DNA from: an uncultured virus (IMG/VR IMGVR_UViG_3300028887_000113)
Taxonomy: Duplodnaviria > Heunggongvirae > Uroviricota > Caudoviricetes
DNA length: 64,000 nucleotides
Virus record (IMG/VR): IMGVR_UViG_3300028887_000113
Reading direction: 5' to 3' (one strand)
Shown here one piece after another: positions 3,246 through 43,875 of this stretch. The position numbers and the translations under genes were made by a program. Below the pieces are notes generated by a model that saw only the letters and a list, made by a program, of their open reading frames with translations, was not told where the DNA came from and searched no databases. The first letter of the stretch is position 1. Every line of letters begins with the position of its first letter.

Positions 3246-6200
3246 CTACCTGAAATAGATGACGCCAACATTCTGTCCATTAGGATCGGCACTGATGCCA
3301 TAACTACACTCAGCTACAGTATTAGCCTGACTAAACCATACTGGACGTTCAGCCGAGCCAGCTGCGGAAATTGTTGCACCACCTCCGCCAGATGTTATAT
3401 AAGTTGACTCAAAAGTATTCCAACCATCATTTTTAGTATATTCTACACAAACATATTTAAACCGAATATTAGCCGCATCAGTTGTATCTCTCATTATGGC
3501 ACTATAAACATATTTATTACCAGTATATACCGAAGTCACAATCTGGCTCAACCTGAGCAAACCCCTGTCACTAGTTTGACTGTCACCTAGTCTCCAATTA
3601 AATGCAATATCAGCACCATCATCTAATGCTTGGTTCATTTGCTGTTTTGTCCACCATTCATTGTTTATATCTATATTAGATATGATGGCAGATATATAAT
3701 GTATTTCAAGAGACCATGCACTTACAACATATTGACTATCCTCAATTTGTACAGTAAACGTTGCTTTATAGAGACGTGATATAATGCTATCCGAATTTGG
3801 ATGTAACGGCTCTTGTACAACCTTACTAAATACATATTCTGTAGTTTCGTGCGGGTACTCATAAGAACCAGTAAACGGTAATATAAGCTCTGCAGCTCGT
3901 GGCAATGTCGCGTCCGTCGAATCAATATATACAGAAACCGCGTAACCGGACTTAATACAGTTCCATGCGTATTCTGCGCCAGTCGACGTATAAGGCACCG
4001 TAGTTTTCATTGGACATGACGACCATATTACTGACTGAATTGTTGGTGTAGATACTCGATTATATACACGGCAGTGAAATGCGTAATCTCTCTCAACACA
4101 TTGGAATTCAAAATAATGGTCCGAAGTCGGAACACCTAGTCGCGGGTCCGGCTGATATACATAAGTTAGCATGTAATATTTATCACCATTATAGTCTATA
4201 CGGTGTTTAATGTACGGTATATAACCCTCATCATACACTTTTTTTATGTTTTCATAAGTTAACGACAACTGACCATCATGAATTTGTTTCAGTAAATGTG
4301 ACTCTAAGTCTTTCGTTATACTTACTGACTTAGAACCGGAACTAGTATACGATGCGGTTAATGTCAACAGCATCGGAGTACCGTTCACTCTGCTAGTAAA
4401 GTACAGTGACATGCCATCGTACTTACTAAATGTCCAATAGGTCGACTTATAATTCGCATCTAGAGGGTCGTACAAAATAACTTGTTTTTTCGGTTCTGGA
4501 CTGTATGTGGAAATATCTAATGTACTGATAAGAGTATCATAGAAGCCAACATAGTCATTCTCATTCGTAGGAATCGCCATATATATCGCAGACGAACCCG
4601 TACCTGAGCCAGAGTCAGACGATACCTTACCCAACCCTACATGCAGAGTACCATCCAATTCCTGCTTATCCTGGACAACCAAGGCCATCCCAGCAAACGG
4701 AGAATCCACTTGCAAGTGATGCACACCGTCGGAGCAGTAGTTATCGTACAGATCAAACGTACCGTTCGCGTTAACCAATTTATTCGGCTTGCTCGTCGGC
4801 TGGTCATCTTGCAGATATACAATGTTACGCACATTGTTCAAATTTGGTGTATACATATTCTGGATATGATCCCCACCAAGCTTTTCGATCAATTCGCTCA
4901 CGTTTGCCGATGAGCTTAAATCGTTATCCCAGCAACCACGCATACCAATTTTCATCAGCATGAAGTTAGAGTCTGCCGTTCCATAACCACCCAGTGCAAT
5001 ACCACCAGAATAAATCATCGGTGCCTTGCACGGCTGGTATAAATCAGACGCACTATAATCAGACCATCCATTACTGTACTTATTAGCTGCACCGTACCAG
5101 TCCGCATAACCGTACTGATATGGGTTTCGACCAACAAACGCGAATACATCACTGAACTCTAACCGATTAGTAGTTGTCCATCGCGACGCAAGGAAATTGC
5201 GTGACGATGCTTGATAATATCCATCACCAGAATATTTAAGATTAGACTCATACGGGATTGACGTTGACGTCTGGTGTCCAATCCACCACACGTTATTAAA
5301 TTTACCCGACGGAGTATTAACTTGTAAATCACCTTGCTGGGTTCCCCAATCATTATGTACTCGCTGACTTTCCGCATCATTAACGAAGCAGTTTGCATAT
5401 GTAATGTTAGCTGACGTACTGTCATTTCCGATGATAACGGTATTACGGCTTCCTTGACCCGGATTATTATAGTTACCAATCATTATCATATTTGACAACA
5501 TGTTACCAGGCTGTAGCGTAGACGTTAGAAATGCTGGATTTGCTTGCGGATTATATGAGCATGACCAATCTGCATTTGGATTTTCAACATACTGTCCGGT
5601 CGTAGTATCTAGAATATAGCGTCCATATGTGATATATAAGCAAGCACCATGTACTTCTCGTGTGAAATTAACCGATCCATTTTTACTCATAGCAGATATA
5701 GTGCCTTCACCGACCACAATCGCCGTATCATAACGAGTTTTACCGTCTGGAGTCATGTAGTCAAACGAATGATCATCATCAGCCACCGTAGTCGTACTAT
5801 ACTTCGCATTAAATTCATCCACAGACAATATTTTTTGCGGGATGCGTTGCGGTGCTAATCGACTCGTCTCAGTTGCACCATAACCACTATTATTATTATT
5901 ACCGATAATAATAGAGTTGCATACATCATAATGTAAATGGTTCTGTGTTCCAAGATTAAGTATCGATTTAATCTGTCGTCCAATCGTATTTGTACGGCCA
6001 GAAACAACTGAGTACAAAATTCCACCAGTTTCAACACCGGTATCAATGACCGTCGTAGAAGAACTATTATATGTGGCATCCGCATTAATAGCGGCAATAA
6101 GATCAGCTCGTCCGATATCGACCCGATCTCCAGTAGACCAACCGTCAGTGAATATCAATGAATATTGAGCCCATCCATACATATTGATGCCACCAGATAG

Positions 6201-8363
6201 CAAGCTGTATGTAATCGGGGTATCCACCATCGTACGGTACAGTGGATTTAATTCACTACGGTCAGTATTATATACACTTATACGACCAATACCGATAGTG
6301 TCATTTACCGCATGGTCGACAAAGCTTCCCTTATCAGCAAATGAATTTCCCTCGCTTTCAATCCACAAACTGCTACGCATTTGCTCGATTTCAGCTGTAT
6401 CGTCCGCCATTATAATCGAGTTACTACTGTTGTCGATACAAATATGTTCATTCAATTCATCGGCATCATCATATATAGGACGTTCGCCCAATAGCAAAAT
6501 CTTACTGGTGTTAGGCCCAATAATTCCGTTGTTGCTCATATTGACAGACAACCTACCCATCGTAGCACTAGAGGTACCTAGTCCCATGGAATAGTCGCCA
6601 ACAATACTACTATATGCATCAATCATTTTAGGTGCAGTCGAGGTCGGATCATCCTCATAACGGACAATGCTGGGATCATTTTCATCACGGACAAGAGTAC
6701 GACCATTTCGTTTGTATACGGTAATCTGATTATCTTCTTGATGAGTATACACACCACGAACAGCGCCGTTTCCAACCATGACAGAGTCAACAATGTTCTT
6801 CAAGTAATTGTGCGTATGTCCAACCAAAGCATAGCGGTCTCCGTCGTCTCCCATGCCACATGCCGAATTGTTATTTACTAAATCAGCAATCTGCTGGCGA
6901 AGATAATTGACTTCGACGCCAAGCGTAGTCACCGCTTCAGCAGCGCTGGCATTTGCAATCAGCTGGTTCTTGTACCACGTAATCGCATCGCTTTCGTATA
7001 GGTTGTAATAGATGCCAGCGTCATCAACAATACCGGTATCAACGACATCAATCTGGAAACTCACGTCATACGTATGCGTACCGTTTTCAGACAACACAAC
7101 CGGCGAATCCAAGTCCATAACGGCGAACAGCTTCGGCTTGCTGTTTCCGGCAATCTGCATCTGCACCAGGTTACGTTCGCACTTGTTATCAGAAGTCTCC
7201 GGAGCCTTGTAAGCATGCAGAGACACAGGTACTGCATAGATACCGATACGATTAAACTTGAACCCAAGACGATACGAGTTAAGCTCCTTCTGATCTTCTG
7301 CATCGTTAGGATTAAGTACAACGCCGTCCTTATAATATACGGTAGAATTCCTGGTCACATCGGTAAATAACTGACGTAAGTCGACTTTAATGGTGTACTT
7401 GACATTCTCGACCTTATTGTCATCCAGAGTATTGATTACGTCGTAATGGGATATCGGGAACAGTCTGGTAGCCAGTGACATGTTGCGGCACGCCGGTTCA
7501 TAATTTACCGCGTTTCCGCTCGCATTGGCAGCGCCATGGAACCGGTTAAAGTTCGACACGCTCTGGTATTGCCATGCTTGCGGTAAATACTTGAACCTGG
7601 CCACCGGGTCGCCATAGGTATATCCCTCGCTTGCCGAGTAGCTGTACTTGTCCGTATTTCCTTCCCAGGTCGACTCATCGATACTGGGCTGAGGAAGCGT
7701 ATTGTCTGACATGCTGATGATACGTGTGTCGGCAGTAATTAAGTGGGAAGGGGTATCCTCTTCGCCACGGCTAGCATTTGTCACGTTATTGACAGCGTTA
7801 TCGATGGACTGCTGTGTGACGACCGGATTATCCCATGCGGACGGTTCGCCCATGTAGTACAGAGGTGCCGGAACCGGGAGTTCCGACGCAGCGGCAACCA
7901 TGCCGTTGTCCTTCTTGGCACCTACGCCAAAATATTCTGTATATTTCTGCAAACCGTACGGAAAGTCGTTACCCTTTACCGGGGTACCGTCTTCGTTCAC
8001 TGATTCAAAGACAATCAGCTTGTTAGATCCGGTGGAATCGAGGACATAGCGGAACTTGCTGATTACGCTGCCGGAATACATGCATTCGTTGTACAGCTTG
8101 CTTGCAGCCGAGTCACCAATGTCGGTATCGAATCCAGTCTGAGTCATAGCTCCCTGGAACACGTTGTAGATGACGTCACCAGTTGTAGTCAGTTCAGTCA
8201 TTCCAGCATGAATCGGGTCAGCTACCTGACTTCCGTCTTCCGATTCCCGGTTCTCATCGGGGACATAGGCCAAACCAAAGTAGCCAAGCCAGTACTGAAC
8301 GGTTCCGTCAGCACGGGTCTGGTTCATGATATTCAATCCGTTGTTGGTGATTAATGACTTCAT
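3246..8363 (-). CDS. Large tail-fibre/baseplate-associated virion protein
   Basis: 1705 aa. N-terminus 'MKSLITNNGL' resembles baseplate-attachment domains. It has an ALVGHTHNY fibre motif, beta-helix-like NSIIIG repeats and a late promoter at 8393. Confidence 0.65.
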   Translation of the reverse strand: MKSLITNNGLNIMNQTRADGTVQYWLGYFGLAYVPDENRESEDGSQVADPIHAGMTELTTTGDVIYNVFQGAMTQTGFDTDIGDSAASKLYNECMYSGSVISKFRYVLDSTGSNKLIVFESVNEDGTPVKGNDFPYGLQKYTEYFGVGAKKDNGMVAAASELPVPAPLYYMGEPSAWDNPVVTQQSIDNAVNNVTNASRGEEDTPSHLITADTRIISMSDNTLPQPSIDESTWEGNTDKYSYSASEGYTYGDPVARFKYLPQAWQYQSVSNFNRFHGAANASGNAVNYEPACRNMSLATRLFPISHYDVINTLDDNKVENVKYTIKVDLRQLFTDVTRNSTVYYKDGVVLNPNDAEDQKELNSYRLGFKFNRIGIYAVPVSLHAYKAPETSDNKCERNLVQMQIAGNSKPKLFAVMDLDSPVVLSENGTHTYDVSFQIDVVDTGIVDDAGIYYNLYESDAITWYKNQLIANASAAEAVTTLGVEVNYLRQQIADLVNNNSACGMGDDGDRYALVGHTHNYLKNIVDSVMVGNGAVRGVYTHQEDNQITVYKRNGRTLVRDENDPSIVRYEDDPTSTAPKMIDAYSSIVGDYSMGLGTSSATMGRLSVNMSNNGIIGPNTSKILLLGERPIYDDADELNEHICIDNSSNSIIMADDTAEIEQMRSSLWIESEGNSFADKGSFVDHAVNDTIGIGRISVYNTDRSELNPLYRTMVDTPITYSLLSGGINMYGWAQYSLIFTDGWSTGDRVDIGRADLIAAINADATYNSSSTTVIDTGVETGGILYSVVSGRTNTIGRQIKSILNLGTQNHLHYDVCNSIIIGNNNNSGYGATETSRLAPQRIPQKILSVDEFNAKYSTTTVADDDHSFDYMTPDGKTRYDTAIVVGEGTISAMSKNGSVNFTREVHGACLYITYGRYILDTTTGQYVENPNADWSCSYNPQANPAFLTSTLQPGNMLSNMIMIGNYNNPGQGSRNTVIIGNDSTSANITYANCFVNDAESQRVHNDWGTQQGDLQVNTPSGKFNNVWWIGHQTSTSIPYESNLKYSGDGYYQASSRNFLASRWTTTNRLEFSDVFAFVGRNPYQYGYADWYGAANKYSNGWSDYSASDLYQPCKAPMIYSGGIALGGYGTADSNFMLMKIGMRGCWDNDLSSSANVSELIEKLGGDHIQNMYTPNLNNVRNIVYLQDDQPTSKPNKLVNANGTFDLYDNYCSDGVHHLQVDSPFAGMALVVQDKQELDGTLHVGLGKVSSDSGSGTGSSAIYMAIPTNENDYVGFYDTLISTLDISTYSPEPKKQVILYDPLDANYKSTYWTFSKYDGMSLYFTSRVNGTPMLLTLTASYTSSGSKSVSITKDLESHLLKQIHDGQLSLTYENIKKVYDEGYIPYIKHRIDYNGDKYYMLTYVYQPDPRLGVPTSDHYFEFQCVERDYAFHCRVYNRVSTPTIQSVIWSSCPMKTTVPYTSTGAEYAWNCIKSGYAVSVYIDSTDATLPRAAELILPFTGSYEYPHETTEYVFSKVVQEPLHPNSDSIISRLYKATFTVQIEDSQYVVSAWSLEIHYISAIISNIDINNEWWTKQQMNQALDDGADIAFNWRLGDSQTSDRGLLRLSQIVTSVYTGNKYVYSAIMRDTTDAANIRFKYVCVEYTKNDGWNTFESTYITSGGGGATISAAGSAERPVWFSQANTVAECSYGISADPNGQNVGVIYFR

Positions 8364-8480
8364 CGAAAAACGTCCAATTTTATACAGAAATTAGTTTATA
8401 ATATCGTGCAGAGAAAACTTCCAACCAGCGCCTCTAGGCGCTGGGGAACACTTCAGGGTGGCAGATGATAGGCGCGGAAC

Positions 8481-8515
8481 TTGACAAAAAAAATTAATTT
8501 AACTATTTATAAACT
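8481..8515 (+). promoter_or_regulatory. Sigma70-like promoter overlapping a phage late promoter upstream of tnpB
   Basis: TTGACA (8481-8486), 17 nt, TATTTA (8504-8509); ATAAACT at 8509-8515. Confidence 0.6.
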
Positions 8516-8540
8516 ATATAAAGATTAGAACTATTGAACC

Positions 8541-9701
8541 ATGTTTCCGCGTGCCTATAACGTCAGACTGTATCCTAACAAGCAGCAAGAAGTCTTGCTC
8601 GGCAAGACTTTCGGCTGCTGCCGTAAAGTCTACAACTGCATGCTGGAAGTACGCAAGAAATCATACGAGGCGACCGGCAAGCAGTGCCGGTCTAAGCCGA
8701 CAGATTTCTACGGAGAGTTCCCCTTCTTGAAGGAAGTTGACTCGAACGCCTTGACAGCCGAAGTGCTTACGTTGAATACGGCGTTCAAGAACTTCTTCGA
8801 GCGGAAGGACGACGGAGTCGGCTTTCCGCAGTTCAAGGCGAAGCACCGGGACAAGGATTCGTATACGAGCTACCGAACGAAGGACAATATCCGCGTAGAA
8901 GGGAGGAAACTCCGCCTACCGAAGGTAGGCTTCGTTCCCTTCCGCAATTACGAAGAGATCGACTGGTCTGTAATGGACATCAAGCACGTGACCGTGTCAC
9001 GGTCACGTGCCGGGAAGTACTATGCTTCAATCTTGGTCGAGGAGACGGTGCCGAAGGCACTGCCGACGACTAATTCAGAAATCGGCATTGATCTTGGATT
9101 GAAGGAATTCTGTGTTACAAGCGACGGCGAATCCGTCGCGAATCCTCGTTTCCTCAAGGAATCAGAAACTCGTATCGCTGACCTTCAGCGAGCGTTTTCC
9201 AAGAAGCAAAAAGGTTCAAAGAGACGAGAGGCATTGCGCGTGCGTATCGCTCGCGAACATGAAAAAGTTGCTAACCGAAGGAAGGATTTCCTTGACAAGC
9301 TGTCTACAAGACTGCTCCGTGAGAACCAAACGGTGGCGGTCGAGGACTTGGACGTACGCGAGGTCGCCGAGGGCGACCACGCGAAGTCCGAGCATGACAC
9401 GGCTTGGAGGATGTTCCTGAACAAACTACAGTACAAGGCTGAATGGTACGGAAGAACCATCGTCCGGGTAGGACGATGGTTTCCCTCGTCTCAGCTATGT
9501 CACTGCTGTGAGTTCAAGAATACGTTGACAAAGGACTTGAATGTACGGTCGTGGACATGTCCGCAGTGCGGCACGTCGCACGACCGTGACGTTAATGCTG
9601 CCATCAACATCCTTACCGAAGGTAAAAGATTATTCGCCGCAGGGACTGCGGTTAAAGGCGCGGGAAACATCGATACGCAACGCGAAGCGCAACGCCTTTA
9701 G
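8541..9701 (+). CDS. tnpB: RNA-guided endonuclease TnpB
   Basis: HTH start RAYNVRLYPNKQQ...FGCCRKVYN, RuvC triad GIDLG / VAVEDL / DRDVNAA, zinc ribbon CHCC...CPQC. Confidence 0.95.
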   Translation: MFPRAYNVRLYPNKQQEVLLGKTFGCCRKVYNCMLEVRKKSYEATGKQCRSKPTDFYGEFPFLKEVDSNALTAEVLTLNTAFKNFFERKDDGVGFPQFKAKHRDKDSYTSYRTKDNIRVEGRKLRLPKVGFVPFRNYEEIDWSVMDIKHVTVSRSRAGKYYASILVEETVPKALPTTNSEIGIDLGLKEFCVTSDGESVANPRFLKESETRIADLQRAFSKKQKGSKRREALRVRIAREHEKVANRRKDFLDKLSTRLLRENQTVAVEDLDVREVAEGDHAKSEHDTAWRMFLNKLQYKAEWYGRTIVRVGRWFPSSQLCHCCEFKNTLTKDLNVRSWTCPQCGTSHDRDVNAAINILTEGKRLFAAGTAVKGAGNIDTQREAQRL

Positions 9702-9737
9702 GCGATGCGTAGTTCACTAGTTTCCAAATCGGAACGC
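9634..9737 (+). ncRNA. Cis omega-RNA (reRNA) conserved 3' scaffold plus predicted guide TAGTTTCCAAATCGGAACGC
   Basis: Overlaps the tnpB 3' end and the right end. The scaffold ends at GTAGTTCAC (9717), and blocks are conserved with the copy at 35115-35199. The 5' boundary is unknown. Confidence 0.7.
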
Positions 9738-9742
9738 GTCGA

Positions 9743-12700
9743 CTAGAACGAGCAATCGTCGGAAATACACGGATCTTCCAGAAGCTCCTTGTCATAATAC
9801 TGGTTCCGATCCAAGACGTACGTAGAATCGTGTATAGCGCCTCCGGAAGTCACCAGTCGAAGAGGAACTTCAAGCTTGCTGTTGAAAACCACGCGGATGC
9901 CGTCAAAAACGACTTGAATCGGCTTGCAGCAACGGATTTGTTCCTTCATCCGGTTCAATTCCTCGTTCCCCATCAATACGCTATGGAAATTCTCGTTTTC
10001 GACAATATCCAGTACCACGTGAGGAGTCGGTACCCATGCCGACGTGGTCTTGCCTGAATTCTGGTCAATATCCATCTGGGTAGGAACATCGGACTGCCTA
10101 ATCAGCTTACCGTACGGGTCATCCGTGTTGGTCCACATGGTAACCAGTTCACCAACCAAGCCGAACGTCGCCATCAGCATGTTGATTCCCGGCTTGGTAC
10201 CGCTCAACGCATAGTACTGAGGAAGATGCGCAATTATCTCTCGGAGTGCCGCCTCGCGTTCCTTGCTGTTTCGGTAGATATTGCTTGAGCTGATGTCATC
10301 GGCGACAGCCGTGATATCATACCCCATGAACCTTGCCAGATACCCTATCAAGTCAATGTCGAGCACTTCCGGATCACGTAGATACGCAAGACGTTCGATA
10401 CGTTCTGCCAACGGATAGCCCATGTCAGGGACGCCCTTGAACTTTGGGTCCATACCGTCACGCGGTGCCACGCTGGCGTAGTCATATTTGGATGAATATT
10501 CCAGCTGGGTATTCTGAGTAGTATCCAAGTGCTCGACATACGGATGCTCGAAGTGATAGTTTCTTGCGCAAGCATAACCGATGGTATATGCCGACGAGTC
10601 TTCGACGACATCACGGTCGGTATAGGTCAAGTACTTGAACTCGACTTCGTTTTCTGGGTCGTCGCCAGCCTCAAACGCCGGATTTACCGTAGAGTCGACC
10701 GACATACGGTCAATCTTGAACGTACGTTTCGCAGCCAACGGGATCCAAGCCGTCGTCGCGGACACTTTCCACGCCCGTCGCTCATCAAGGCACTGCTGTG
10801 CCATGGTCACGACGATATCCCCTTCGACGAACTTGACCACCTCTCCGTCTAGCTTGATACGGTATTCTCCGTTAAGCCGATGGATATTCATGGACTTGAC
10901 CATGTATCCCTTAAATAAATAGCCGGTAGGCGCATTGCTAATGCTCAATTCAACTGTATAGTCGTCCACTACCTCTGTCACCACTCCGGATTTGATCAAA
11001 ATGGCATTGTCTGCGGAGACATTATATACGGTCTTTCCGTCGGGATCTACCAAGACATGGTCACCCTTGGACAAGTTGTGCTTGTACTTTGTCGTGTACC
11101 TATACGGATTCTGTGACGAATGTTCCATTATCGCATTGGATGTGGCATAGGACACCAAGTTACTCTTCTTGTCCCAGTCGTACCCTTTCAGCGTATACTT
11201 ATACCATCGACCGACATGTACGGTCATTTGCCTATTGACGATGGGAGCTACCAGTTCATCCACAGGAACATACGGATCTACATAGATACGGAACGTTCCT
11301 CCGTTCTCGATACTATGAATAGTATGCCAGCCGCATAGAGTTCCCTGGTTGACAAACTCAATGTACACACGTCCCTTACCGGCGTATATCTCGTTTGCAT
11401 TTGGAACATCCAGTTCCGGAATACGTTTCGACACAACGACTTTCACCCAAGGGTTGTCGTCTTCCTTGATAATATCCTTGATGACATATCCGTCGCTTAT
11501 TGCAAACGTCGGATTAGTCACGCTGGTCTCAAATAAATTATGTCGGCTATAGATTGCATGTGGAGTCAATATATCGGTCGGGCTGATCGGAGTCCAACTT
11601 CCAGCGTTCACAAGATACAAGTCACCGCCTACTGCAATTTCATTTTCCGATATGATTGGATATACGTCGTCACGGAATTCGTAGTTGCCCATTTCGGCAA
11701 TAGGCATCATTTCTGGTCCGACAACGACAACATCTCCGTCTTGCGGATAGTCGTCCGATTTATAATATGACCGGTCATACTGCACGGTAATATCAGACTT
11801 GTCGCTCAGTGCAATCGCATATCCCATAACGTCATCAGCCTTGGTAGTATACTGGAACGCGTCCGGTGACAATACGTTGATTTCCGCGTCATCTGCATCA
11901 AACACGGCATGCCAGGCTTCCTCTTCGACAGTGACATTTGCCGTAATTCGTGCGCCATTCGATAGCCCATGAGCACTGGACTGGATCGTTACGACCCATT
12001 CGCCAGAATTCCTTCGTTGAGCAATCGGAGCCGCATCGACATCAATCACATACCAACGTGAGCCACATCCGGACAATAGCGCATTACCCGGCAAAACATG
12101 GGCAGTCTTCCTCAAATTGACATTGACCGGGTTACGACCATTTCCTACCAGCTTGTTGTCCGAATACATTTCGATAAAGCCGGAGCGATCCCTTGACGCT
12201 ACACCAATGTTGTCATTGTAGTACATGTATTCACGCTGTTGCCATCCATACTTCAAGCGAACGTCATCCACCTTCTTGATATACAACGGCAATCTAACAA
12301 GCTTCATATTCCCACTGTAATTAATCTTGTCGTCATAATCTAATGTACTAACCGGACCGCAATACGGCATATAGGAATTCAAAATTTCCTTAAATCCGAC
12401 TGAATAGTGGACAATCTTGTCAACAACCTTACTATTAGTATCTTCAACTACCCCGGCTTCATTTACCTTTACCGTACGAGTAATATAATACACAAGTCCG
12501 TCGGTCGGGTCATACATGTAATCGCCGGTCTGATAAGATGTCTGATCCTTCTTCACGTCGGTATCCATGTACAGTAGACTATATTTCTTGGAACCGTTTA
12601 CCGTAGCAAGCATATACTGTGCAGTAAAGATATCACCGACATAGCTGTTCTGCTCGACAACGCCAATCTTAGTATTGTCGGCATCTTGCTTAATGTATCG

Positions 12701-14638
12701 GAATGCATATATCGATGCGCTATCATTCTCATCTACGGCAACTCGTCTAATCGGCACTACTCCAGTCAGCGCGACAGTCACGCCGAACGGCTTCTTGACC
12801 AAAATACGTCCAGAATTGCTACCATCGGAGAATTCACTGCGATCAACTCGGAACAACACATCCGTAGGGTCTGCACCGTTGATACTTACAGAAATGACAA
12901 TCATGTCATTGTCAATGAAATGCCTATCCTTGCCGCAGACTACGTCAAAATACACGTAGTCAGACTCCATGTCGGTCATCGAGTCTATGCCATATACCAG
13001 TCCGGCACCCAGCTTATACAGAGGAACATTATCCACGCCTAGCTGTGCTTGTACGAACTGGACATTTCCTAACGTAATCCTAAACAATCCGTCGTCGCCA
13101 TTCCTCGTCGATATAACCGTTGCCGCATATGGGGTAAGGCCATCAGCTCCCTTGAACGCAGGAGACCAAACCATGTCGCCCTCGTTAATCTTACCAGCTA
13201 GCGAGCTGTACGTTTGAATCGTATTGGACGCAACTCGTATGATTTTACCTTTATATAGGAGCTCGTTGTCGGTTACCTTGGCACGTTTCATGTAGATATT
13301 GGAATTTACACCAACCAAGTTGCCGAACAAATCCGAAACTTCAGTAGTCCATCTTAATTTTGGCAACTTGTTGTCAAAATCGATAATATATTTGCTGGAC
13401 GCAAGAGGAATCATCACTAGCGACAATTTTCCTTGCCACTCTGGATTTTCAATATGGTAATCGGTACCAGAAATATTGACCAAGTCGACATAAAGCTTGC
13501 CGTCGTCAAATCGGTCACCCTCAGAAACCGTACCGTTCATTCGGTAAATTCCCTTGGATTCCATACCATTCATGATATAAAACACGGCATTTGAATAAAT
13601 TCCAGGAAATGCATCCATAAACAAACGATATACGCCAGATTTCTTTTCAATAGAACGGATACTATATTTATCCACAGACGGGCTTAATAACGGATCAGCC
13701 ACATCCAGTATCCCATAAGTCGACAGATTGGTCAGCCTAGCTGAACTGCTATCACGGAAATAGAATAAGCCGGTCGGATATTCACCGGTCCATCCAAACC
13801 CGTTAGAATCACCAAACTTGATATAAGTACGATACGTGCCACTGTCGGGTGATACCGTACCAGTCAAGTCGTAGTAATCGACGTAAATGCTGTCATCGGT
13901 ACCATCCGCATTAACATCATAAGTAGAAAGCCCGGATGCCGATACACGTTCGACATTGGATACATGCACCTGGAAATATACTTCATAATAGGTAAGCTTC
14001 CCATGGCTTCCACCGTACCTACAGATCACCTTTCCGACATCCTGTACATTGAACTGGATTGCGGTCGCCGGATCGTTGTACGTATCTGTAAACGGGTCTT
14101 GTGAAGAAGCCAGTGGATCCTTTTTCAGTATATTGGCGTCCTTGACATAATAATATGCAACAAGCTCGCCAAGTTCCCTCTTGCGGTACTTGAGATATAC
14201 GACATCGCCGTCATCAAGCGCCTCAGCGCCGCCGATGCGAGACGATGCAGATTCCACGGTATCTACGATATCTGTAAAGTCTACATCGATTGTCTTCTGA
14301 TACTCAGCATTGGCATTTCCGATAGTGACATTGCTTTTCACGTTATTTCGCGGTGCGGACAAGTACATGACATGCTCGCCACGGTCACAAGCAAGCTGGA
14401 ACATGCTGCACAGACGGTTCATCCATTCCTGTACAACAGTACGGTCAGTACTCGTGCATACCTTGATGATTTCGAACTCCTCAGTCACCTCGACATTACG
14501 ATACGCATTGTTGATATAGTCGGACATGACTTGCAAGTACGTGACTACATCCGGCTCAGACCGCAGAAACTCAGGCAAATAGCCTACAAAGTCGGTAAAT
14601 CGATATTGGCCATTCTTGTTATATACTATCGGATTCAT
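9743..14638 (-). CDS. Baseplate wedge protein (gp7-like / P2 gpI-like ends)
   Basis: N-terminal YLPEFLR and C-terminal 'RDPEVLDIDLIGYLARFMGYD...YALSGTKPGI...KPIQV' baseplate motifs; follows gp6. Confidence 0.7.
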   Translation of the reverse strand: MNPIVYNKNGQYRFTDFVGYLPEFLRSEPDVVTYLQVMSDYINNAYRNVEVTEEFEIIKVCTSTDRTVVQEWMNRLCSMFQLACDRGEHVMYLSAPRNNVKSNVTIGNANAEYQKTIDVDFTDIVDTVESASSRIGGAEALDDGDVVYLKYRKRELGELVAYYYVKDANILKKDPLASSQDPFTDTYNDPATAIQFNVQDVGKVICRYGGSHGKLTYYEVYFQVHVSNVERVSASGLSTYDVNADGTDDSIYVDYYDLTGTVSPDSGTYRTYIKFGDSNGFGWTGEYPTGLFYFRDSSSARLTNLSTYGILDVADPLLSPSVDKYSIRSIEKKSGVYRLFMDAFPGIYSNAVFYIMNGMESKGIYRMNGTVSEGDRFDDGKLYVDLVNISGTDYHIENPEWQGKLSLVMIPLASSKYIIDFDNKLPKLRWTTEVSDLFGNLVGVNSNIYMKRAKVTDNELLYKGKIIRVASNTIQTYSSLAGKINEGDMVWSPAFKGADGLTPYAATVISTRNGDDGLFRITLGNVQFVQAQLGVDNVPLYKLGAGLVYGIDSMTDMESDYVYFDVVCGKDRHFIDNDMIVISVSINGADPTDVLFRVDRSEFSDGSNSGRILVKKPFGVTVALTGVVPIRRVAVDENDSASIYAFRYIKQDADNTKIGVVEQNSYVGDIFTAQYMLATVNGSKKYSLLYMDTDVKKDQTSYQTGDYMYDPTDGLVYYITRTVKVNEAGVVEDTNSKVVDKIVHYSVGFKEILNSYMPYCGPVSTLDYDDKINYSGNMKLVRLPLYIKKVDDVRLKYGWQQREYMYYNDNIGVASRDRSGFIEMYSDNKLVGNGRNPVNVNLRKTAHVLPGNALLSGCGSRWYVIDVDAAPIAQRRNSGEWVVTIQSSAHGLSNGARITANVTVEEEAWHAVFDADDAEINVLSPDAFQYTTKADDVMGYAIALSDKSDITVQYDRSYYKSDDYPQDGDVVVVGPEMMPIAEMGNYEFRDDVYPIISENEIAVGGDLYLVNAGSWTPISPTDILTPHAIYSRHNLFETSVTNPTFAISDGYVIKDIIKEDDNPWVKVVVSKRIPELDVPNANEIYAGKGRVYIEFVNQGTLCGWHTIHSIENGGTFRIYVDPYVPVDELVAPIVNRQMTVHVGRWYKYTLKGYDWDKKSNLVSYATSNAIMEHSSQNPYRYTTKYKHNLSKGDHVLVDPDGKTVYNVSADNAILIKSGVVTEVVDDYTVELSISNAPTGYLFKGYMVKSMNIHRLNGEYRIKLDGEVVKFVEGDIVVTMAQQCLDERRAWKVSATTAWIPLAAKRTFKIDRMSVDSTVNPAFEAGDDPENEVEFKYLTYTDRDVVEDSSAYTIGYACARNYHFEHPYVEHLDTTQNTQLEYSSKYDYASVAPRDGMDPKFKGVPDMGYPLAERIERLAYLRDPEVLDIDLIGYLARFMGYDITAVADDISSSNIYRNSKEREAALREIIAHLPQYYALSGTKPGINMLMATFGLVGELVTMWTNTDDPYGKLIRQSDVPTQMDIDQNSGKTTSAWVPTPHVVLDIVENENFHSVLMGNEELNRMKEQIRCCKPIQVVFDGIRVVFNSKLEVPLRLVTSGGAIHDSTYVLDRNQYYDKELLEDPCISDDCSF

Positions 14639-21089: not shown

Positions 21090-22781
21090 TTATTTACAGT
21101 TTATCACAAACATGTACTTTTCATCAACTAATGCACCATAATTAAATCGAAAACTATCATATATTGATGTATATTGTAATGCAAGTGCTTTGCTATATGT
21201 AATGAACACGTAATTATCCGCATGACATTCTGCCATAACATCGTCTACATCAACCGAATGAACCGTTAGATCACATATTACACACGTAGATGACATAGCG
21301 CCCAATTGAGTCTCGGTTACTTCGGATATTGATGGTAATTCATGTATACGAGAAATAGCTTTATTTTCAGCTAAGACAATACTATCGCATTTATAACTAA
21401 TATATGCACGTCCGCATGCATTTGCAGCCAATAATAATGCTGCGTTGATAGGTGCATATTCAATAATATGTTCTACATGAGGTAAAAAATACTTAATAAT
21501 AAACAGATACATTCCAGTAGATATGAGCCTAGGCATAGGAATCACTGACGATACAAGTAACCCCATAATCGGTTGTGCCGAGCTACATGGACTATTATAT
21601 AAAGACTGTTCGTATACGCATTTATGCCTTAACTCATCATTACGCCACATATCCACTAATGAAGCATTGTTTATTCTAGGCTGTGTATAGATGCTAGTAT
21701 TATACATATATACCGAACTCATACCATATTGAGCATTTTTATACGTATGCTTATTGTTATATAGTTTGCACAACTGTGCATAATCATAATGAATCCTATG
21801 TTCATCATATACTGGATAGGGAAACTCTTTCGAGGTTATATCATATTGATATTTCATCCAAGCATCAAATGATAACCGTAATACAAACTGTAACAAGTCA
21901 TATATTTCATTTAATTTACAGCTATCGCCACAAATCAACTTGACATTGGTATTCTTAAGCATGGCAAAGCGACCACAATCAATCTTTAAGCATTTCCAAT
22001 CGGATTGGTACCCATGATGAAATTCACCATCAATTTCAATAACGGTATCTAATATGCCATTGTTGAATACAGCAAAATCCCACATTTTTCGCTGGAATGC
22101 GTAATTATATTGAAACTGGAGACCATTTTTCGTAAGTAAATCAGCAAAAGCATGCTCCGCCTTTGAAAAATATCCATCCGAATCTTTTTTATACTTATAT
22201 GGCGTCAGTGCACCTGGAATTTGAGCATAGTATTCATATCCATAATGTTTCAACATGGTCTGCCTACTACGCTCTCGTAGTACATGACTATAAGATGGAT
22301 GAATAACACCATAATTCCTAAATAACGTATTTTGAAATTTTTCTTGTACACTCGCCGATTTCATCACATTGTCAACACCATAAAGCGAGAGGCATGTTTG
22401 CTTACTTTTCTGTCGAAATTCATCTGTCTGCATATAGTATTCTACACCAAACTTGTCTAAACAGTGCTGCCGATTTTTATTCTGTGTATACTCCGATGCG
22501 CACACATATTCATTTCCATACTTTTCCAAACAAGTCTTCTTGATACGTTCAATGTGTTCCGGATTCAGCAAGTTAGTCTTATATCCAAATTTATCAATGC
22601 AAACTTGTTCAATCTTCTGACGAATTTCCGGTACTTGTGATACGTATTCTTTGCCATACTTGTCTTTGATTCGTTGCTTGGCAAGCTGTTGCATACTATC
22701 AAGCTTGAATACATTGTCGACACCATATTTTTCAACGATAGCATCGACTACTTTTTTCTCATTAGTTCCCTTGAGAGTTAG
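21090..22781 (-). pseudogene. 3' part of a split homing-endonuclease-like gene: KYG repeats, DUF559-like PD-(D/E)XK nuclease, degenerate methyltransferase-like domain
   Basis: The frame stays open upstream of 22694 to 22781 (LTLKGTNEKKVVDAIVEKYGVDNVF). Contains K(Y/F)G repeats and SKAE...WDF...IEIDGEFHH. Confidence 0.7.
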
Positions 22782-24331
22782 TCAACGTATAGGTAAATAT
22801 ACTCATTGACTTTTTGACGTGTCCGGGACTCTTAGCTCCGAACCATCCATCTTGAATAAGCCATTAGGCAACCAGAAGAAGCCCTCTGTCTTAGCCAGTC
22901 TGGAGAACTCATTTGAGTGAGGTATAGCGGGTAGGTCTATCGCATGGTTCTTAGCCGCATTGATATCGGCATCCATCACGAGTCCGCATATAGGACATAT
23001 ATAGAGCTTTCCCTTCCTCGCCTTTTTGAGTACGTGTCCGCATCCGGAGCAGCGTTGAGAACGGTAGGCATTCGACTGCAGATTTATTCGGACACCGAAC
23101 TCCTCTGCAACTTGTGCCAACCTAGTCACTATCTCCGGATTAGACCAATGTTTCATCTTTCTGGACGTATTCCGCCCATAGTTAATGTTAGTTATTTTTT
23201 CAAGGCCGATTTCCTTGATATTGCTGAAATCAAGCCTCTTGACTGCATAGTTGATATAATTCTTTCGTTCAGTTTGCGCTCGACCGAAGGCTTTTGACCC
23301 TTTCTGTTTCCTAGCGAGCTTGTCTGTTATCGTATCTAGGTTAACTTTAATGACTCGGTCTGGTTCATTCTTCTTGGGTGCCTTTACGAGCATATCGGTA
23401 GTAGTCTGTCCATCAGACAAGGACACGCAAGTTAGTAGTCCTTGATCAGCGCCTACCTTGATTCCGTCAGTCTTGATATGCACATCCTTCTCCCATCGTA
23501 ACTGGACGCCGTATTCATCTATCAAGTATCCGTTGCATCGCGTCCAAGTACCGTCGGTATATTTAGACAAGTGTTTCTGTTGGCATACTGGTACACTGAA
23601 TATGGGCAGTCCAGTTGACTTGATGCGAAGGAACCCATAGAACTCTCCATTCGGCGTAGGACTGAATTCAGCGCACTTGCTGGAGATTTCTATCCCAGCA
23701 TCGGACAAGTCTGGTCTGGACGGCTTTTTAGACTCGATGGTTTCCCACAAATGTTCGAGATATCGCCCTTTCCCAGCTTCCTTGTCAAATACATCTAGTC
23801 TAGCCGCATTCTTGCTACAGATAGCACGCAGCTGTCCGCTTAACTGTGTAACTAGTGAACTCAACATTCTAGCAGACAGCCATGTATCTACCTTAAAACG
23901 GTTATAATCAAGATATTTAGGAAGTTCATACTTGTACTTATCTGGATTGAATTCATGTATGCCGTCGTCTTCTAGCCAAGTATATCCGTTTGACCAGATA
24001 TCATCACAGAAAAGCTGCATTACTCGACGCCATTCTGCAAGAAGCATAGATATTGCCTCTTTTTTGCCAGTATTGGCAAATTTTAGCGTATGTCTAGTCG
24101 AACGTACTATCATATACAAGTAATGCCCAGTTGACGCAATATTGTGGCTGTCTGCATCAACTGGGCATACGAAACCCATTCATAGAACTACAAGACAGCC
24201 ACGAATTGCTTGTTCTAACCAAAGTTTATATGTTTTCATTTTTATAGAAAATTACATCATTTCTATATGAATGTCGTTCTAGACCATTCTTTGACATAGA
24301 TAAGTATATTTTGCTATATTTTTAGTATTAT
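22782..24331 (-). mobile_element. tnpB-only insertion (1555 bp including one CTAAC copy)
   Basis: Bounded by GTTAG at 22777-22781 and 24332-24336. Removal fuses the flanking reading frames in phase. Confidence 0.75.
22803..24113 (-). CDS. tnpB: TnpB/Cas12f-like RuvC nuclease (distinct clade from 8541-9701)
   Basis: VGADQG, IGLEKI, SQRCSGCG...CPICG, DADINAA. The likely start is MIVRSTRHTLKFAN (24113); 24179 is an alternative. Confidence 0.9.
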   Translation of the reverse strand: MIVRSTRHTLKFANTGKKEAISMLLAEWRRVMQLFCDDIWSNGYTWLEDDGIHEFNPDKYKYELPKYLDYNRFKVDTWLSARMLSSLVTQLSGQLRAICSKNAARLDVFDKEAGKGRYLEHLWETIESKKPSRPDLSDAGIEISSKCAEFSPTPNGEFYGFLRIKSTGLPIFSVPVCQQKHLSKYTDGTWTRCNGYLIDEYGVQLRWEKDVHIKTDGIKVGADQGLLTCVSLSDGQTTTDMLVKAPKKNEPDRVIKVNLDTITDKLARKQKGSKAFGRAQTERKNYINYAVKRLDFSNIKEIGLEKITNINYGRNTSRKMKHWSNPEIVTRLAQVAEEFGVRINLQSNAYRSQRCSGCGHVLKKARKGKLYICPICGLVMDADINAAKNHAIDLPAIPHSNEFSRLAKTEGFFWLPNGLFKMDGSELRVPDTSKSQ

Positions 24332-29900: not shown

Positions 29901-30647
29901 CTATTTCTTTTCCTCGGCGGTCTTCTTCTTGCGTACGGCAAGGATGCGTTTTGCTTCCTTGCAAGCAGCTTCCTCGCTGACACCTTCCTCGTCAACCAGT
30001 TTCTTAGCCAGTTCGATGACCTTGTCGTCCATGTACGGATCGACCTTTTCAAGGACATCGACCGCATCGGACAAGTTGCCGTGATCCATCGCCAAGTGGG
30101 CATTGATCTCGTCCTTCTGACGCGTTTCCTCACGTTCGATCACACCAGCATACTCGTCAATATTGACGCACGTATGGAGAATGTTCTCGTTCAAAGAGGT
30201 GAACTTGATGTACTTTGACTTCTTCTTGAGGTCGGTTACTTGCTGCATGAATGCACGAGACACGATCTGCCCCAAGTAGTAGTAAGGATCCTTGTTCTTG
30301 GAATTCTCCGCCATCTTGTTCGGGTCGAACGAATGGCAGTACTTCAGTGCGCAGAACTGGGCACGAGCGTACATTTCTTCCTTCCAAGAATCCGTGTACT
30401 TGCGCCATGACATCATGCCAGCGGTCTTCTTGATGACGACCTGGATAGCAGTGGCGAGGTCATCCGATACCGGATAACCCTTGCCGTACATTTCCACGTC
30501 TTTTTTGTGTTCGAGGAGAAGTCTGGTCAGATAATCCTTATCAATCTTGTCGTACTTCATCGAGGCGACCGTCTGACGGCCTTTATCGTCAAAGACTGCA
30601 GGGTTTGCCGGACGCTTCTTCGGACCGTTAATGTTCTTGTTGTTCAT
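29901..30647 (-). CDS. gp55: Late transcription sigma factor gp55-like
   Basis: WRKYTDSWKEEM...LKYCHSFDPNK...DPYYYLGQIVSRAF matches the gp55 pattern F..Y...EEM..A...LKY..NFDP.K..NPFAY.TQI...AF. Confidence 0.85.
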   Translation of the reverse strand: MNNKNINGPKKRPANPAVFDDKGRQTVASMKYDKIDKDYLTRLLLEHKKDVEMYGKGYPVSDDLATAIQVVIKKTAGMMSWRKYTDSWKEEMYARAQFCALKYCHSFDPNKMAENSKNKDPYYYLGQIVSRAFMQQVTDLKKKSKYIKFTSLNENILHTCVNIDEYAGVIEREETRQKDEINAHLAMDHGNLSDAVDVLEKVDPYMDDKVIELAKKLVDEEGVSEEAACKEAKRILAVRKKKTAEEKK

Positions 30648-34346: not shown

Positions 34347-34991
34347 TTATCCTTCTGTAGGCGGCTGTGCCACTTCCGGAAGCGGTATTCCGCACAGTTT
34401 TCTGATTGTGTTTCCAGTATTCTTGAGTGCCTGAACGATCGGAGCAGACTTCTGGCTAAACGGCTTAAAATACTTCTCGCACTTCGCCGGGAGCCATTCC
34501 TGAGGGTTCTGCAGAGACACACAAAGGTTCTCGATGAAGGAGAGCATCATTTCCGGATTGATGGCGGCACCCTGCACGTCATCCTTCCAGTCGGCCTCGA
34601 CCTTCGTCTTGTATGAGGACATTTCCTTGACACGCTGCACTGCCTCGCTCTTGTTGATGCCTTCCTTGACCTTGCGGTTAACCTCATCGAACTTTCTCAA
34701 GTTGTTCTGGTATGCGTCACGGAATTCCTGGGAGCCTTCACCGATATTAACTTGCTGCGGAACGAAATATCCGTTCGGCTGTACGCCTTGCTGATATTGC
34801 GGCTGCATCGGCTGCTGGTATCCCTGCGGAGGATACTGCGGCTGCATCGGCTGCTGCGGATATCCTTGCTGTGCATAATTCGGCTGCGGTGCATACTGCG
34901 GAGAGTAACCCGGTTGCACGTACGGATTCTGCGGTTGAGGTTGTTGCATCTGGCCACGAGGGGCAATGTTAGTGTAGTCTGGTTGTTTCAT
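34347..34991 (-). CDS. Q/P/Y-rich hypothetical late protein
   Basis: QQPMQPQY repeats, RBS GAGGA, late promoter at 35009. Confidence 0.65.
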   Translation of the reverse strand: MKQPDYTNIAPRGQMQQPQPQNPYVQPGYSPQYAPQPNYAQQGYPQQPMQPQYPPQGYQQPMQPQYQQGVQPNGYFVPQQVNIGEGSQEFRDAYQNNLRKFDEVNRKVKEGINKSEAVQRVKEMSSYKTKVEADWKDDVQGAAINPEMMLSFIENLCVSLQNPQEWLPAKCEKYFKPFSQKSAPIVQALKNTGNTIRKLCGIPLPEVAQPPTEG

Positions 34992-35015
34992 AAATCCTCT
35001 ACACGCCTAGTTTAT

Positions 35016-35199
35016 ATAATAATGGCGTCATCTCAAAGGTGCAAACTATAAATAGAAATTGCCTATTGGAAACTGTGACGATATTTACTACATTAATAAT
35101 GTATCGCAAGGTACTCGCCGCAGGAACGGCGGTTAAAGGCGCGAGCGTCTCTATGAGACTAACGCGAATCTCACCGTATTCCAATGGTGCGTAGTTCAC
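35016..35199 (+). mobile_element. Protein-less mini-element derived from the tnpB element
   Basis: Starts after TTTAT (35011-35015) and ends in GTAGTTCAC (35191-35199); no ORF of consequence. Confidence 0.65.
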
Positions 35200-35219
35200 C
35201 AGTTAGGCACATTTCGTCT
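35101..35219 (+). ncRNA. Stand-alone omega-RNA with predicted guide CAGTTAGGCACATTTCGTCT
   Basis: 27/29 identity to 9634-9662, shared AACGCGAA and TGCGTAGTTCAC, and a 5' GCAA-tetraloop hairpin. Confidence 0.7.
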
Positions 35220-35239
35220 AAGTGGATAAATTACTCTAA

Positions 35240-37209: not shown

Positions 37210-38280
37210 ATGCAAAATCAAAACCAGAATCCAGCCAAAGATCAGTGCAAGTTCAACAGTTCCGACACGCTGCACATACCCGGACTTGAACCGAACCATA
37301 TCGGATACTTCCGTCGACTTGCAAAGCAAATCGGCGTCGAGGAAGCCAGACTGAAATATAACGGAATGTCCAAGGAAAAAGCCGTCTATCTGGCATCGCT
37401 CGACGACAAGATGGACAACTACGGAATCAAGTGGACTGTCGAGGTACTCAAGAAACGATATGCAGACAAGAAGTTCGCACCGTATATCGAACCGAAACCT
37501 CGTGACGACTATGACTATTACGATTATTACGACCGAGACGAATTCTTCGGCCCCAAAGATACAGTAACCTACGCAAGATGGCTGTACAACCGGTACGGTG
37601 CACGAAAAGTGGCCAAACAATTCCATATATCCGACAACATGGCAGAACGAATCGGAACATCATCACTTCCGGGCTCCACGAAAGTCGACGAGCTGGAAAC
37701 TGAAGACGATATCGACGAAAAAGAATCAGAAATCTATGCGCGAAAGGCCGCAAAATCAATTAACGCATACCAGATGAAGCAGTTTCACAATGGAAACTCC
37801 AGAAAACTGAAAATCCGACTCAACAAACTGGCAGAAAACGACACCGCATTCGTTCTGAGAAAGCTCATCGAGACCGAAGACTATAACATCAAGGCAAAGG
37901 AATGCTATTTCGACTATATCCAGTACAATTATGACAAGAAATCGGAAAACCTAGTGGCAGCTATCGAACGACTGTCCAAAATGGACTGGAAATACTGGTG
38001 GGCCGACGACCAGGAAGGTACCGCGTCATACATATTCTACGTAGTACTGCCTACCGGAAAGCAAGTAAGCTGGCACGGTATGCACATCAAGGACGTAGAA
38101 AACGTACCCAAAGACAACGATGCCGAATGGGACGGCGAACTGTCGTCTACACTCCCGAAACTGCTGGAATGCGTCGAGGCAGTTTGCCCGTCGATTAATG
38201 AAGAAAAGTTCGACAAAAAGAAATGCCTTGACGAACTAGAAAAATACTCACATCAAGAGTTCGAACGAGTCCAGTCGTAG
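37210..38280 (+). CDS. Hypothetical protein
   Basis: Long plus-strand ORF preceded by TGCTATATT; C-terminal LPTGKQVSWH motif. Confidence 0.7.
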   Translation: MQNQNQNPAKDQCKFNSSDTLHIPGLEPNHIGYFRRLAKQIGVEEARLKYNGMSKEKAVYLASLDDKMDNYGIKWTVEVLKKRYADKKFAPYIEPKPRDDYDYYDYYDRDEFFGPKDTVTYARWLYNRYGARKVAKQFHISDNMAERIGTSSLPGSTKVDELETEDDIDEKESEIYARKAAKSINAYQMKQFHNGNSRKLKIRLNKLAENDTAFVLRKLIETEDYNIKAKECYFDYIQYNYDKKSENLVAAIERLSKMDWKYWWADDQEGTASYIFYVVLPTGKQVSWHGMHIKDVENVPKDNDAEWDGELSSTLPKLLECVEAVCPSINEEKFDKKKCLDELEKYSHQEFERVQS

Positions 38281-42012: not shown

Positions 42013-42157
42013 ATTTATTAACCTCACCTCAAATATAATAACACGAAATGCAATAGTCAACTGTTTTTTAATAAATAATTAAAAAATATTTTATTACATT
42101 CAGTCTAGTACGTCTTTTATCTTCTACAAGACAGCTGGTCAGAAATATATACAAGTA

Positions 42158-42179
42158 AGCGGCGAAGTAATTCGCCGCT
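42158..42179 (-). terminator. Hairpin downstream of the major capsid gene
   Basis: AGCGGCGAA-GTAA-TTCGCCGCT. Confidence 0.6.
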
Positions 42180-42214
42180 CTCTTAGTTTCTTGCTTACTC
42201 GGCCAACAACCGCA

Positions 42215-43708: not shown

Positions 43709-43847
43709 ATAAGTAGTCCTTCTGTTGTTGTGCCTTCTCGGCAGCACCAATCCGGTACTACTCTGACAGGCGTTTCTTGATATAATGTTTAGGGATATCT
43801 AAAAACGCCATTAAAAAATGGTCAAAAAGCTACATTGAAATGAAAAA

Positions 43848-43868: not shown

Positions 43869-43875
43869 GAGATAG

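Follow-up and report, generated by a model that had tools for sequence, protein, structure and literature searches.

Insertion of IS608 of Helicobacter pylori is directed by four bases termed GL (AAAG), which lie 5’ of the left hairpin and pair with the target TTAC, and an altered GL retargets insertion (PMC3201880). In the ISGst elements of Geobacillus stearothermophilus, the transposase TnpA and the nuclease TnpB share one transposon-associated motif (TAM), and TnpB, by cleaving the donor joint or empty site, drives the element to be copied again (Meers et al., 10.1101/2023.03.14.532601). Most ISGst copies lack tnpA, and protein-less miniatures resembling palindrome-associated transposable elements (PATE-like) encode omegaRNAs that need TnpB in trans (10.1101/2023.03.14.532601). 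In the TnpB of ISDra2, residues K76, F77 and N124 are among the TAM contacts seen by cryo-EM (PMC10097598). TnpB-only IS200/IS605 elements have also been described from phages, with ISCaje1-3 present in several copies and at different places in the T4-like Campylobacter phages CP220 and CPt10 (PMC2853527), while a 2026 review treats TnpB homing into co-infecting phages as theoretical (PMC13565253). Here we describe an element of this kind in 64,000 nucleotides of DNA from an uncultured virus of the Caudoviricetes (IMG/VR record IMGVR_UViG_3300028887_000113), the whole of which we call the window. Positions 8400-9717 on the plus strand are almost certainly a non-autonomous, tnpB-only IS200/IS605 element, which lies 3’ of TTTAT and at the upstream edge of the ATAAACT core of a gene for a 1705-aa protein:

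8400..9717, plus strand: tnpB-only IS200/IS605 element (near-certain assignment), 1318 bp, with no target duplication; limits set by a contig of public run X4, the empty alleles of relatives and the ends of sister copies.
8392..8399, minus strand: putative late-promoter core, reading ATAAACTA in this orientation, 29 nt before the ATG start codon of the open reading frame (ORF) 3246-8363; conserved in the empty sites of contigs L004, L005 and L006.
3246..8363, minus strand: downstream gene, served by the split promoter; 1705-aa product.
9743..14638, minus strand: upstream gene, 1631-aa product; its stop codon lies 25 nt past the right end of the element.

The left flank reads TTAGTTTAT (8391-8399), with TTTAT at 8395-8399, and the element closes with TTCAC (9713-9717), after which the right flank begins with TAGTTTCC (9718-9725). 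The limits of the element are fixed to the base by an empty allele in run X4, which belongs to a different study from the runs that best hold the region: a 589-nt contig fuses 8399 to 9718, skipping 1318 positions with zero ambiguity. This contig has other letters at 2 of 141 positions on the left and 20 of 448 on the right and so represents a phage about 96% identical; filled and empty alleles are thus polymorphic between close relatives. No base is gained or lost at the joint, as IS200/IS605 insertion predicts, and the element shares with that group its placement 3’ of a short motif and its lack of target duplication and of terminal inverted repeats. A more diverged empty allele is found in run X5, in a contig where seven other letters separate 8401 from 9727.

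Homologues of the two giant ORFs are adjacent in three IMG/VR contigs (L004, L005, L006), separated by spacers of 60-67 nt in which the motif is uninterrupted and which read, in gene orientation, GAAACT(A/G/T)ATAAACTAGTTTCTG(C/T)ATAA. When the window flanks are joined, GGAAACTA being followed directly by ATAAACTAATTTCTG, they match these empty spacers, so the element comprises the 1318 bp from 8400 to 9717. Since the base after TTTAT is T, C or A in the relatives, their sites left the boundary ambiguous by 1-2 bases, which the X4 contig settled. At the right end, homology between sister copies stops at TTCAC in 15/15 copies, after GTAGTTCAC (TTCAT in L026), and loose contig ends in runs X2, X4 and X5 depart at 9717-9721. 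The insertion divides an extended motif between AAACTN and ATAAACTA, and the core stays with its gene. When a degenerate form of the empty junction was run against the viral contig collection only the contig of L006 matched, and GenBank phages gave no nucleotide match to 7400-10700; contig G001 is a fragment of the same phage at 100% identity and so is uninformative. Most runs with the region are labelled bovine gut metagenome. Summed contig depth is greater over the element than over its flanks in runs X1 and X2, which is not a copy number but a mere hint that related copies are common.

A preliminary description of this DNA had offered the left boundary as its own inference and had predicted the empty junction; the X4 contig proves the boundary correct, and the junction is exactly the one found there and at the L004-L006 sites. 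The description had also placed the joined flanks (TAGTTTAT-TAGTTT) one mismatch from the intact promoter at 58892 (TAGTTTAT-CAGTTT), as we confirm, and had proposed an insertion inside a late promoter whose core survives before a fibre gene. The split extended motif, with ATAAACTA remaining beside the downstream gene, upholds the first half of this proposal. The labels ‘fibre’ and ‘essential’ are provisional: neither the 1705-aa nor the 1631-aa product has a match in PHROGs, Pfam, a PDB sequence search or the Atlas, and the ends of the two giant ORFs had no protein match in GenBank phages, a search of which TnpB was not part.

Several features of the window point to ATAAACT as a phage promoter signal. 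TAGTTTAT occurs nine times against 2.06 expected, a number reached in 0 of 100 shuffles. The 7-mer ATAAACT occurs 20 times, and 16 of these copies lie at most 75 nt upstream of a same-strand start among the 39 listed long ORFs, where 0.48 would be expected, mostly at distances of 12-45 nt. Genes preceded by it include a baseplate wedge gene, a sheath stabiliser gene and both TnpB-like genes of the window, and it is absent from the recombination-gene block at 59-64 kb. AAC(T/C)G precedes 8 of the 20 copies by our own count, so that the full signal is often AACTG-ATAAACT, and it was such an extended motif that the element split. A short AT-rich -10-like element before late and structural genes, without a -35 element, is characteristic of gp55-dependent late promoters, and the window encodes a factor of the corresponding type:

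29901..30647, minus strand: gp55-like late sigma factor (phrog_234, E 1.1e-16).

The late-promoter consensus of phage T4 is TATAAATA, from which the motif here differs as the variant ATAAACT(A/G). Since the phage has a gp55-like factor, it is reasonable to call the motif a ‘late promoter’, a name based on its letters and placement. The promoter at 8392-8399 probably still works after the insertion, tolerance being suggested by 15 further promoter-edge insertions before long ORFs. Read on the plus strand, the core 8392-8399 ends in the predicted TAM, TTTAT, the flank of the element being the reverse complement of ATAAACT. Two other copies of the motif have unusual surroundings. The promoter at 58892-58899 is flanked by an inverted repeat, CCTCGGTT … AACCGAGG (58860-58915), which could place its core in a hairpin loop. 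At 45555-45561 (plus strand), in the spacer between the portal and an endonuclease gene, ATAAACT is opposed to the surrounding minus-strand genes with no convincing gene after it, and could be a relic of an element’s internal promoter.

The same placement recurs across the family. TnpB relatives of 71-97% identity are present in related huge-phage contigs, several per genome; in G004 there are four close copies, one of which is frameshifted, together with others that are more distant. We tabulated 26 independent insertion sites, merging orthologous duplicates. TTTAT adjoins 17 of the 26 (AGTTTAT in 15, CGTTTAT in L105, ATTTTAT in L124), and at every one of the 17 except L124 an opposite-strand ORF of at least 40 aa starts within 40 nt beyond the motif. 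The remaining nine adjoin TTTAG (eight) or TTGAG (one), at sites where ATAAACT is not found. Conservation in the TTTAG group is limited to the 5-mer, which indicates that the additional AG of the TTTAT group reflects promoter context and not a 7-nt TAM. Inside the element, ATAAACT stands about 20-35 nt before the tnpB ATG in 14 of the 16 loci with an upstream region, and the other two, which are a single insertion (L029=L035), have ATAAACA. With ATAAACT preceding tnpB across the family, the lineage uses a phage signal for its own gene. In four loci (L108, L127, L129, L136) tnpB and the late motif are intact while the left-end hairpin region has been deleted or replaced; TnpA could no longer move these copies, and the nuclease gene has been kept.

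How much of this association calls for a special explanation depends on what TTTAT alone would produce. Counting both strands, the window has 137 TTTAT sites; 35 are intergenic, and 17 of these 35 lie inside AGTTTAT. Random insertion at TTTAT, with survival of intergenic insertions only, would therefore be expected to leave about half of all copies at promoter cores. We observed 13 of 14 sites at AGTTTAT for copies of the S/N/V/K residue type (described below), a binomial tail of ~7e-4 at p = 0.49 by our own arithmetic, with p taken from one window and the sites not fully independent. We conclude that the promoter association is largely, perhaps not wholly, due to the TAM sequence and purifying selection.

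These numbers also bear on an alternative account, according to which the element is an ordinary insertion sequence, its association with promoters a by-product of a TAM that happens to lie in the core and of intergenic survival in a densely coding phage, with TnpB serving at most for retention after excision and spread occurring by descent or ordinary recombination. The 17 of 35 intergenic sites fit this account. It is further favoured by L124, which lies at TTTAT outside any ATAAACT core with no opposite-strand ORF start within 40 nt, by the TTTAG-type copies at other intergenic sites, and by orthologous insertions shared between related contigs (L028=L032, L029=L035, L024~L037), which fit vertical inheritance. 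It accommodates less readily the 13 of 14 S/N/V/K(R) copies at AGTTTAT, the phage late motif before tnpB in all copies (as the ATAAACA variant in two loci, one insertion), and the filled/empty polymorphism between phages so nearly identical. Furthermore, dN/dS values of 0.06-0.16 between copies at different sites (18 pairwise comparisons) indicate strong purifying selection on TnpB, for which, with no TnpA in five related contigs, retention after TnpA excision alone is a weak reason. We therefore see the by-product account as a live possibility, but one whose chances fall well short of even.

Evidence on the TAM itself comes from co-variation between flank, protein and left end. TnpB alignment columns 68, 69, 75 and 114 read S/N/V/K (R once) in 14 copies, all of them at TTTAT, and A/Q/K/N in 11 copies, of which nine are at TTTAG or TTGAG and two (L034, L177) at TTTAT (Fisher exact p ~3e-5 for 14/0 against 2/9, by our own arithmetic and with relatedness ignored). 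The TnpB protein tree requires at least two changes of flank type. No column separates the types perfectly, and four do so with one exception. The columns align to ISDra2 K76, F77, L83 and N124, which include the three TAM contacts named above. At the left end, a block AAAA-C is present in 13 of the 15 TTTAT-flank copies besides L034 and L177 (L029 has AATTC, and L108 has lost that part), and AAAC-A in 9 of the 11 A/Q/K/N copies. By the position-wise rule of IS608, AAAA fits TTAT and AAAC fits TTAG, the register of the block being uncertain by one base. Target choice thus appears to follow TnpA-type logic, and the nuclease appears to have followed, as a shared TAM predicts. Of the two irregular copies, L177 has the AAAC block and L034 a heavily substituted left end.

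The internal organisation of the window copy is as follows:

8400..8540, plus strand: left end, with putative DNA guide block AAAA (8414-8417) and hairpin CCAGCGCC (8425-8432) / GGCGCTGG (8437-8444).
8509..8515, plus strand: the element’s own ATAAACT, 25 nt upstream of the tnpB ATG; a copy of the phage late-promoter core.
8541..9701, plus strand: tnpB, 386 aa; D184/E268/D350; CHCC (320) and CPQC (340); TAM-linked S68, N69, V75 and K114.
9540..9717, plus strand: predicted omegaRNA scaffold region, overlapping the tnpB 3’ end; right-end hairpin 9688-9709; end TTCAC 9713-9717.
9718..9737, plus strand: putative guide-encoding flank, beginning TAGTTTCCAAATCGGAAC; upstream half of the split promoter region, assigned from known TnpB architecture.

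The tnpB ORF matches the Pfam families OrfB_IS605 (2.8e-29), Cas12f1-like_TNB (2.5e-25) and HTH_OrfB_IS605 (1.2e-17), and phmmer aligns residues 4-368 to ISDra2 TnpB (8bf8/8exa; E 7e-78). D184, E268 and D350 align to the D-E-D triad of ISDra2, whose catalytic residues are D191, E278 and D361, and the zinc-finger pairs CHCC and CPQC are present, so that the protein has both the RuvC triad and the zinc finger of an IS200/IS605 TnpB. An nhmmer left-end profile matches the region 8400-8540 (E 4.6e-39). Subterminal hairpins are found at both ends (DNA folds with z -2.3 on the left and -2.4 on the right), the right-end stem showing compensatory changes over 15 copies. When the 3’ 178 nt of the same number of copies were folded together with RNAalifold, a conserved structure of 43 pairs emerged, 10 of them with compensatory changes. 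An Rfam scan of 8000-10200 returned as its sole match a chance-level sRNA inside tnpB, scoring 24 bits where the gathering score is 100. Immediately upstream of the promoter lies an inverted repeat, GTTC(C)-N5-7-(G)GAAC (9721-9737, and the L004-L006 spacers), which is kept in four phages and now falls in the guide-encoding flank.

An intact triad and zinc finger speak directly against the idea that this protein has lost its nuclease activity and, like TldR, represses the adjacent promoter under RNA guidance. Such repressors are encoded by phages (PMC13418256), and the guide here does span promoter-proximal DNA. But the guide sequence matches the window once only, at its own template, and that match in the filled allele is preceded by TTCAC and not by the TAM. 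We consider a TldR-like role very improbable.

We lean slightly towards the following account of how the element works. tnpB would be transcribed from the element’s own copy of the late-promoter core, and the 3’ end of the transcript would become the omegaRNA, whose guide is the flank from 9718 onward. The TnpB-omegaRNA complex would cut TTTAT plus this flank, a target offered by a co-infecting close relative that lacks the element, or by the donor joint after excision, and recombinational repair from the filled genome would copy the element in. New promoters would be reached through a Y1 TnpA acting in trans, at targets set by the left-end guide through pairing of AAAA with TTAT. Every late-promoter core contains TTTAT in its reverse complement, and insertions within genes would be purged, which would leave late promoters as the usual surviving sites. 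In silico, the empty allele would present the TAM followed by the guide sequence at its joint. Only one locus is addressed by the guide, to which the three IMG/VR relatives are mismatched, so only close relatives would be cut.

In this last respect the preliminary description, which had the element cutting element-free promoters in general, was overstated: a single site is addressed, and the three IMG/VR empty sites have at least three mismatches. Its proposal that RNA guidance makes late promoters into insertion sites survives in part. Insertions do lie at promoter cores, but their choice would be set by the TAM and the left-end guide and not by the guide RNA, in a phage where about half of intergenic TTTAT sites are cores in any case. 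Its choice of TTTAT as the likely TAM is well backed by the conserved flank of 17 sister sites and by the co-variation with TAM-contact residues and left-end guide, and the D-E-D triad that it recognised is intact in the alignment to 8bf8.

Taken together, the lineage appears adapted to living in phages and is probably spreading between them, and homing during co-infection would be one route for this; in this reading as a whole we have moderate confidence. The following points weigh against it. To begin with, promoter cores already make up 17 of the 35 intergenic TTTAT sites of the window, so that much association would arise without special targeting. L034 and L177, with A/Q/K/N residues, abut AGTTTAT promoter cores and break the co-variation; moreover, the co-varying residues map to ISDra2 contacts of TAM positions -3 to -5, whereas the flank change is visible at -1. 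The outer left-end stem of the window copy is mismatched at two positions relative to the family consensus. The 20-nt guide is mismatched at 3 of 20 positions in L006 and L004 and at more in L005. No RNA run is among those listed for the region, and transcription starts, omegaRNA and cleavage are all inferred from sequence. Finally, Y1 TnpA (PF01797) is absent from 5/5 related phage contigs, three of them at least 91% complete, while control genomes were positive, a set that does not include the full genome of the window phage.

The element, at 1318 bp, has no room for TnpA and is thus not an autonomous form; the enzyme that would mobilise it is hypothetical. In a search of one genome each from ~186,000 species, close TnpB relatives (88-94%) were found only on four contigs (2.7-25 kb) of two rumen metagenome-assembled genomes labelled Prevotella and Fibrobacter, labels that we do not take as host evidence, and the next best match had at most 46% identity. 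From its sequence matches, the family would seem so far to be confined to phage or phage-like DNA.

A second, smaller insertion in the window repeats the arrangement without the protein gene:

35016..35199, plus strand: tnpB-less derivative, 184 bp, ending in GTAGTTCAC; degenerate left part with a TATAAATA-like motif.
35008..35015, minus strand: putative late-promoter core of ORF 34347-34991, TAGTTTAT, abutted by the miniature.
35200..35220, plus strand: predicted guide-encoding flank of the miniature; 21/21 match to the sequence beside TTTAT in the empty site of G003 (L187).

A profile built from 15 right ends (nhmmer) has its second match at 35111-35199 (E 8.2e-17), over model positions 91-178, the 3’ 88 positions of the omegaRNA/right-end model. 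The insertion therefore combines insertion-sequence ends and an omegaRNA segment in the absence of a protein gene, as in PATE-like guide-only miniatures. The uninterrupted site in relatives G003 and G005 (loci L187 and L188) reads …CCTAACTG followed directly by ATAAACTAGGCGTG…, so that the miniature, too, splits AACTG from ATAAACTA. With 21/21 positions matching beside TTTAT, the G003 site would in silico be a complete target. G004 contains a sister miniature (L213) whose left end is intact and which has an ATAAACT of its own; this motif leads directly into the same short module on the 5’ side and then into the 3’ part of the omegaRNA. The sister miniature, too, is placed after AGTTTAT, facing a gene start; loose contig ends in runs X1, X2 and X5 show this short module joined at the same element position. 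In the viral contig collection, a 24-letter pattern specific to the miniature junction gave 0 matches. With a 16-letter junction pattern 18 loci appeared, but the right-end profile matched none of them and all were set aside as chance. By analogy with described guide-only elements, the TnpB on which tnpB-less miniatures such as 35016-35199 depend is probably supplied in trans.

Guide-only miniatures at other late promoters, one of them with a perfect target in a sequenced relative, raise the further possibility that the phage has co-opted TnpB as a weapon or regulator, which with several omegaRNAs cuts or blocks the late promoters of competitors (marker exclusion) to the benefit of the phage. 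The phage late motif heading tnpB would suit such a role, and the many free-standing homing-endonuclease genes in the window indicate that conflict of this kind is common. However, copy number and sites differ among relatives, and the end geometry of the TnpA type is conserved and co-varies with the TAM, as in an element that is still mobile. We judge co-option unlikely. As for the still stronger form of the reading that we favour, a phage-specialised RNA-guided gene drive whose TAM has been evolutionarily matched to the gp55-type late-promoter core, we offer it tentatively and think it doubtful. If it were true, every late promoter of related phages would be a harmless landing pad, the same signal would time the nuclease to late infection, and guide-only satellites would retarget one nuclease to further promoters, so that a carrier could attack several late promoters simultaneously in one co-infecting relative. 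Under this reading, the excess of promoter sites over the null could reflect a preference for melted late-promoter DNA as a single-stranded integration substrate.

The window comes from a T4-like myovirus, a huge rumen phage of lytic type. Its genes include those for a portal protein, major head protein, baseplate wedge, gp15-like sheath stabiliser, SbcC-like nuclease and several homing endonucleases; related phage contigs measure 175-355 kb. The head-gene block is interrupted, in the stretch surrounding the gene for the major head protein, by three large paralogous homing/HNH endonuclease genes (38253-45531, minus strand; phrog_3339, E 1e-109 to 1e-118), which with a fourth, weaker endonuclease-like gene (21090-22694, minus strand) form a dense selfish-nuclease cluster. 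A second, divergent TnpB-like ORF of 458 aa lies at 22803-24179 (minus strand); only its TNB domain passes Pfam, it belongs to phrog_506 (transposase), and ATAAACT stands 43 nt upstream of its ATG.

The family is a natural case in which the TAM equals the promoter core of the carrier and the nuclease gene uses the late signal of the carrier, and it accounts for the tolerance of numerous transposon copies by a lytic phage that is densely coding. Its natural switch of TAM from TTTAT to TTTAG, mirrored in the left-end guide and in TAM-contact residues, yields four candidate residues for TAM re-programming in a compact editor. Filled, empty and guide-only alleles all exist for direct tests. For plasmids, a TnpB gene drive has been reported (PMC11870625). 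A link between a TnpB TAM and a phage late promoter was not found in the literature searched, a search in which supplements were not included; new here are the empty allele of public run X4, exact to the base, the null model, the co-variation across the TAM switch, and a guide-only miniature with a perfect target.

Among described systems, ISDra2 of Deinococcus radiodurans is matched in its aligned TnpB with D-E-D triad and zinc finger, in a TAM 5’ of the left end, in the residues K76, F77 and N124 that align to those co-varying with the flank, and, by prediction, in an omegaRNA overlapping the tnpB 3’ end with its guide outside the right end. Unlike ISDra2, the family has no tnpA in the element or related contigs, its likely TAM is TTTAT or TTTAG and not TTGAT, the Y52 loop (a contact of TAM -1) is absent from the alignment with the window TnpB, and the element resides in a lytic-type huge phage and is headed by a phage late motif. 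With IS608 it shares subterminal hairpins at both ends, the lack of target duplication, a cleavage site 18 nt before the block-plus-hairpin (19 nt in IS608), and a 4-nt block 5’ of the hairpin that tracks the target (AAAA/TTAT and AAAC/TTAG here, AAAG/TTAC in IS608; PMC3201880); it differs in having no transposase, in a block register ambiguous by one base, and in L034 and L177, which break the rule. The likeness to ISCaje1-3 is one of description only, namely TnpB-only, multi-copy elements in T4-like carriers, and the available text of that report gives no link to promoters, a TAM or guide RNA (PMC2853527). ISGst and the PATE-like elements offer the same shared-TAM logic, tnpA-less copies and protein-less miniatures (10.1101/2023.03.14.532601), but on a bacterial chromosome, with homing between sister chromosomes, whereas the targets here would be co-infecting phage genomes and the TAM is the promoter core of the carrier. 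The free-standing Seg and Mob homing endonucleases of T-even phages are likewise intergenic nuclease genes between conserved phage genes, patchy among relatives and expected to spread on co-infection (PMC13565253). In contrast to these, the element described here would recognise its target through a guide RNA and a TAM and not through protein, with self and non-self told apart by the insertion itself.

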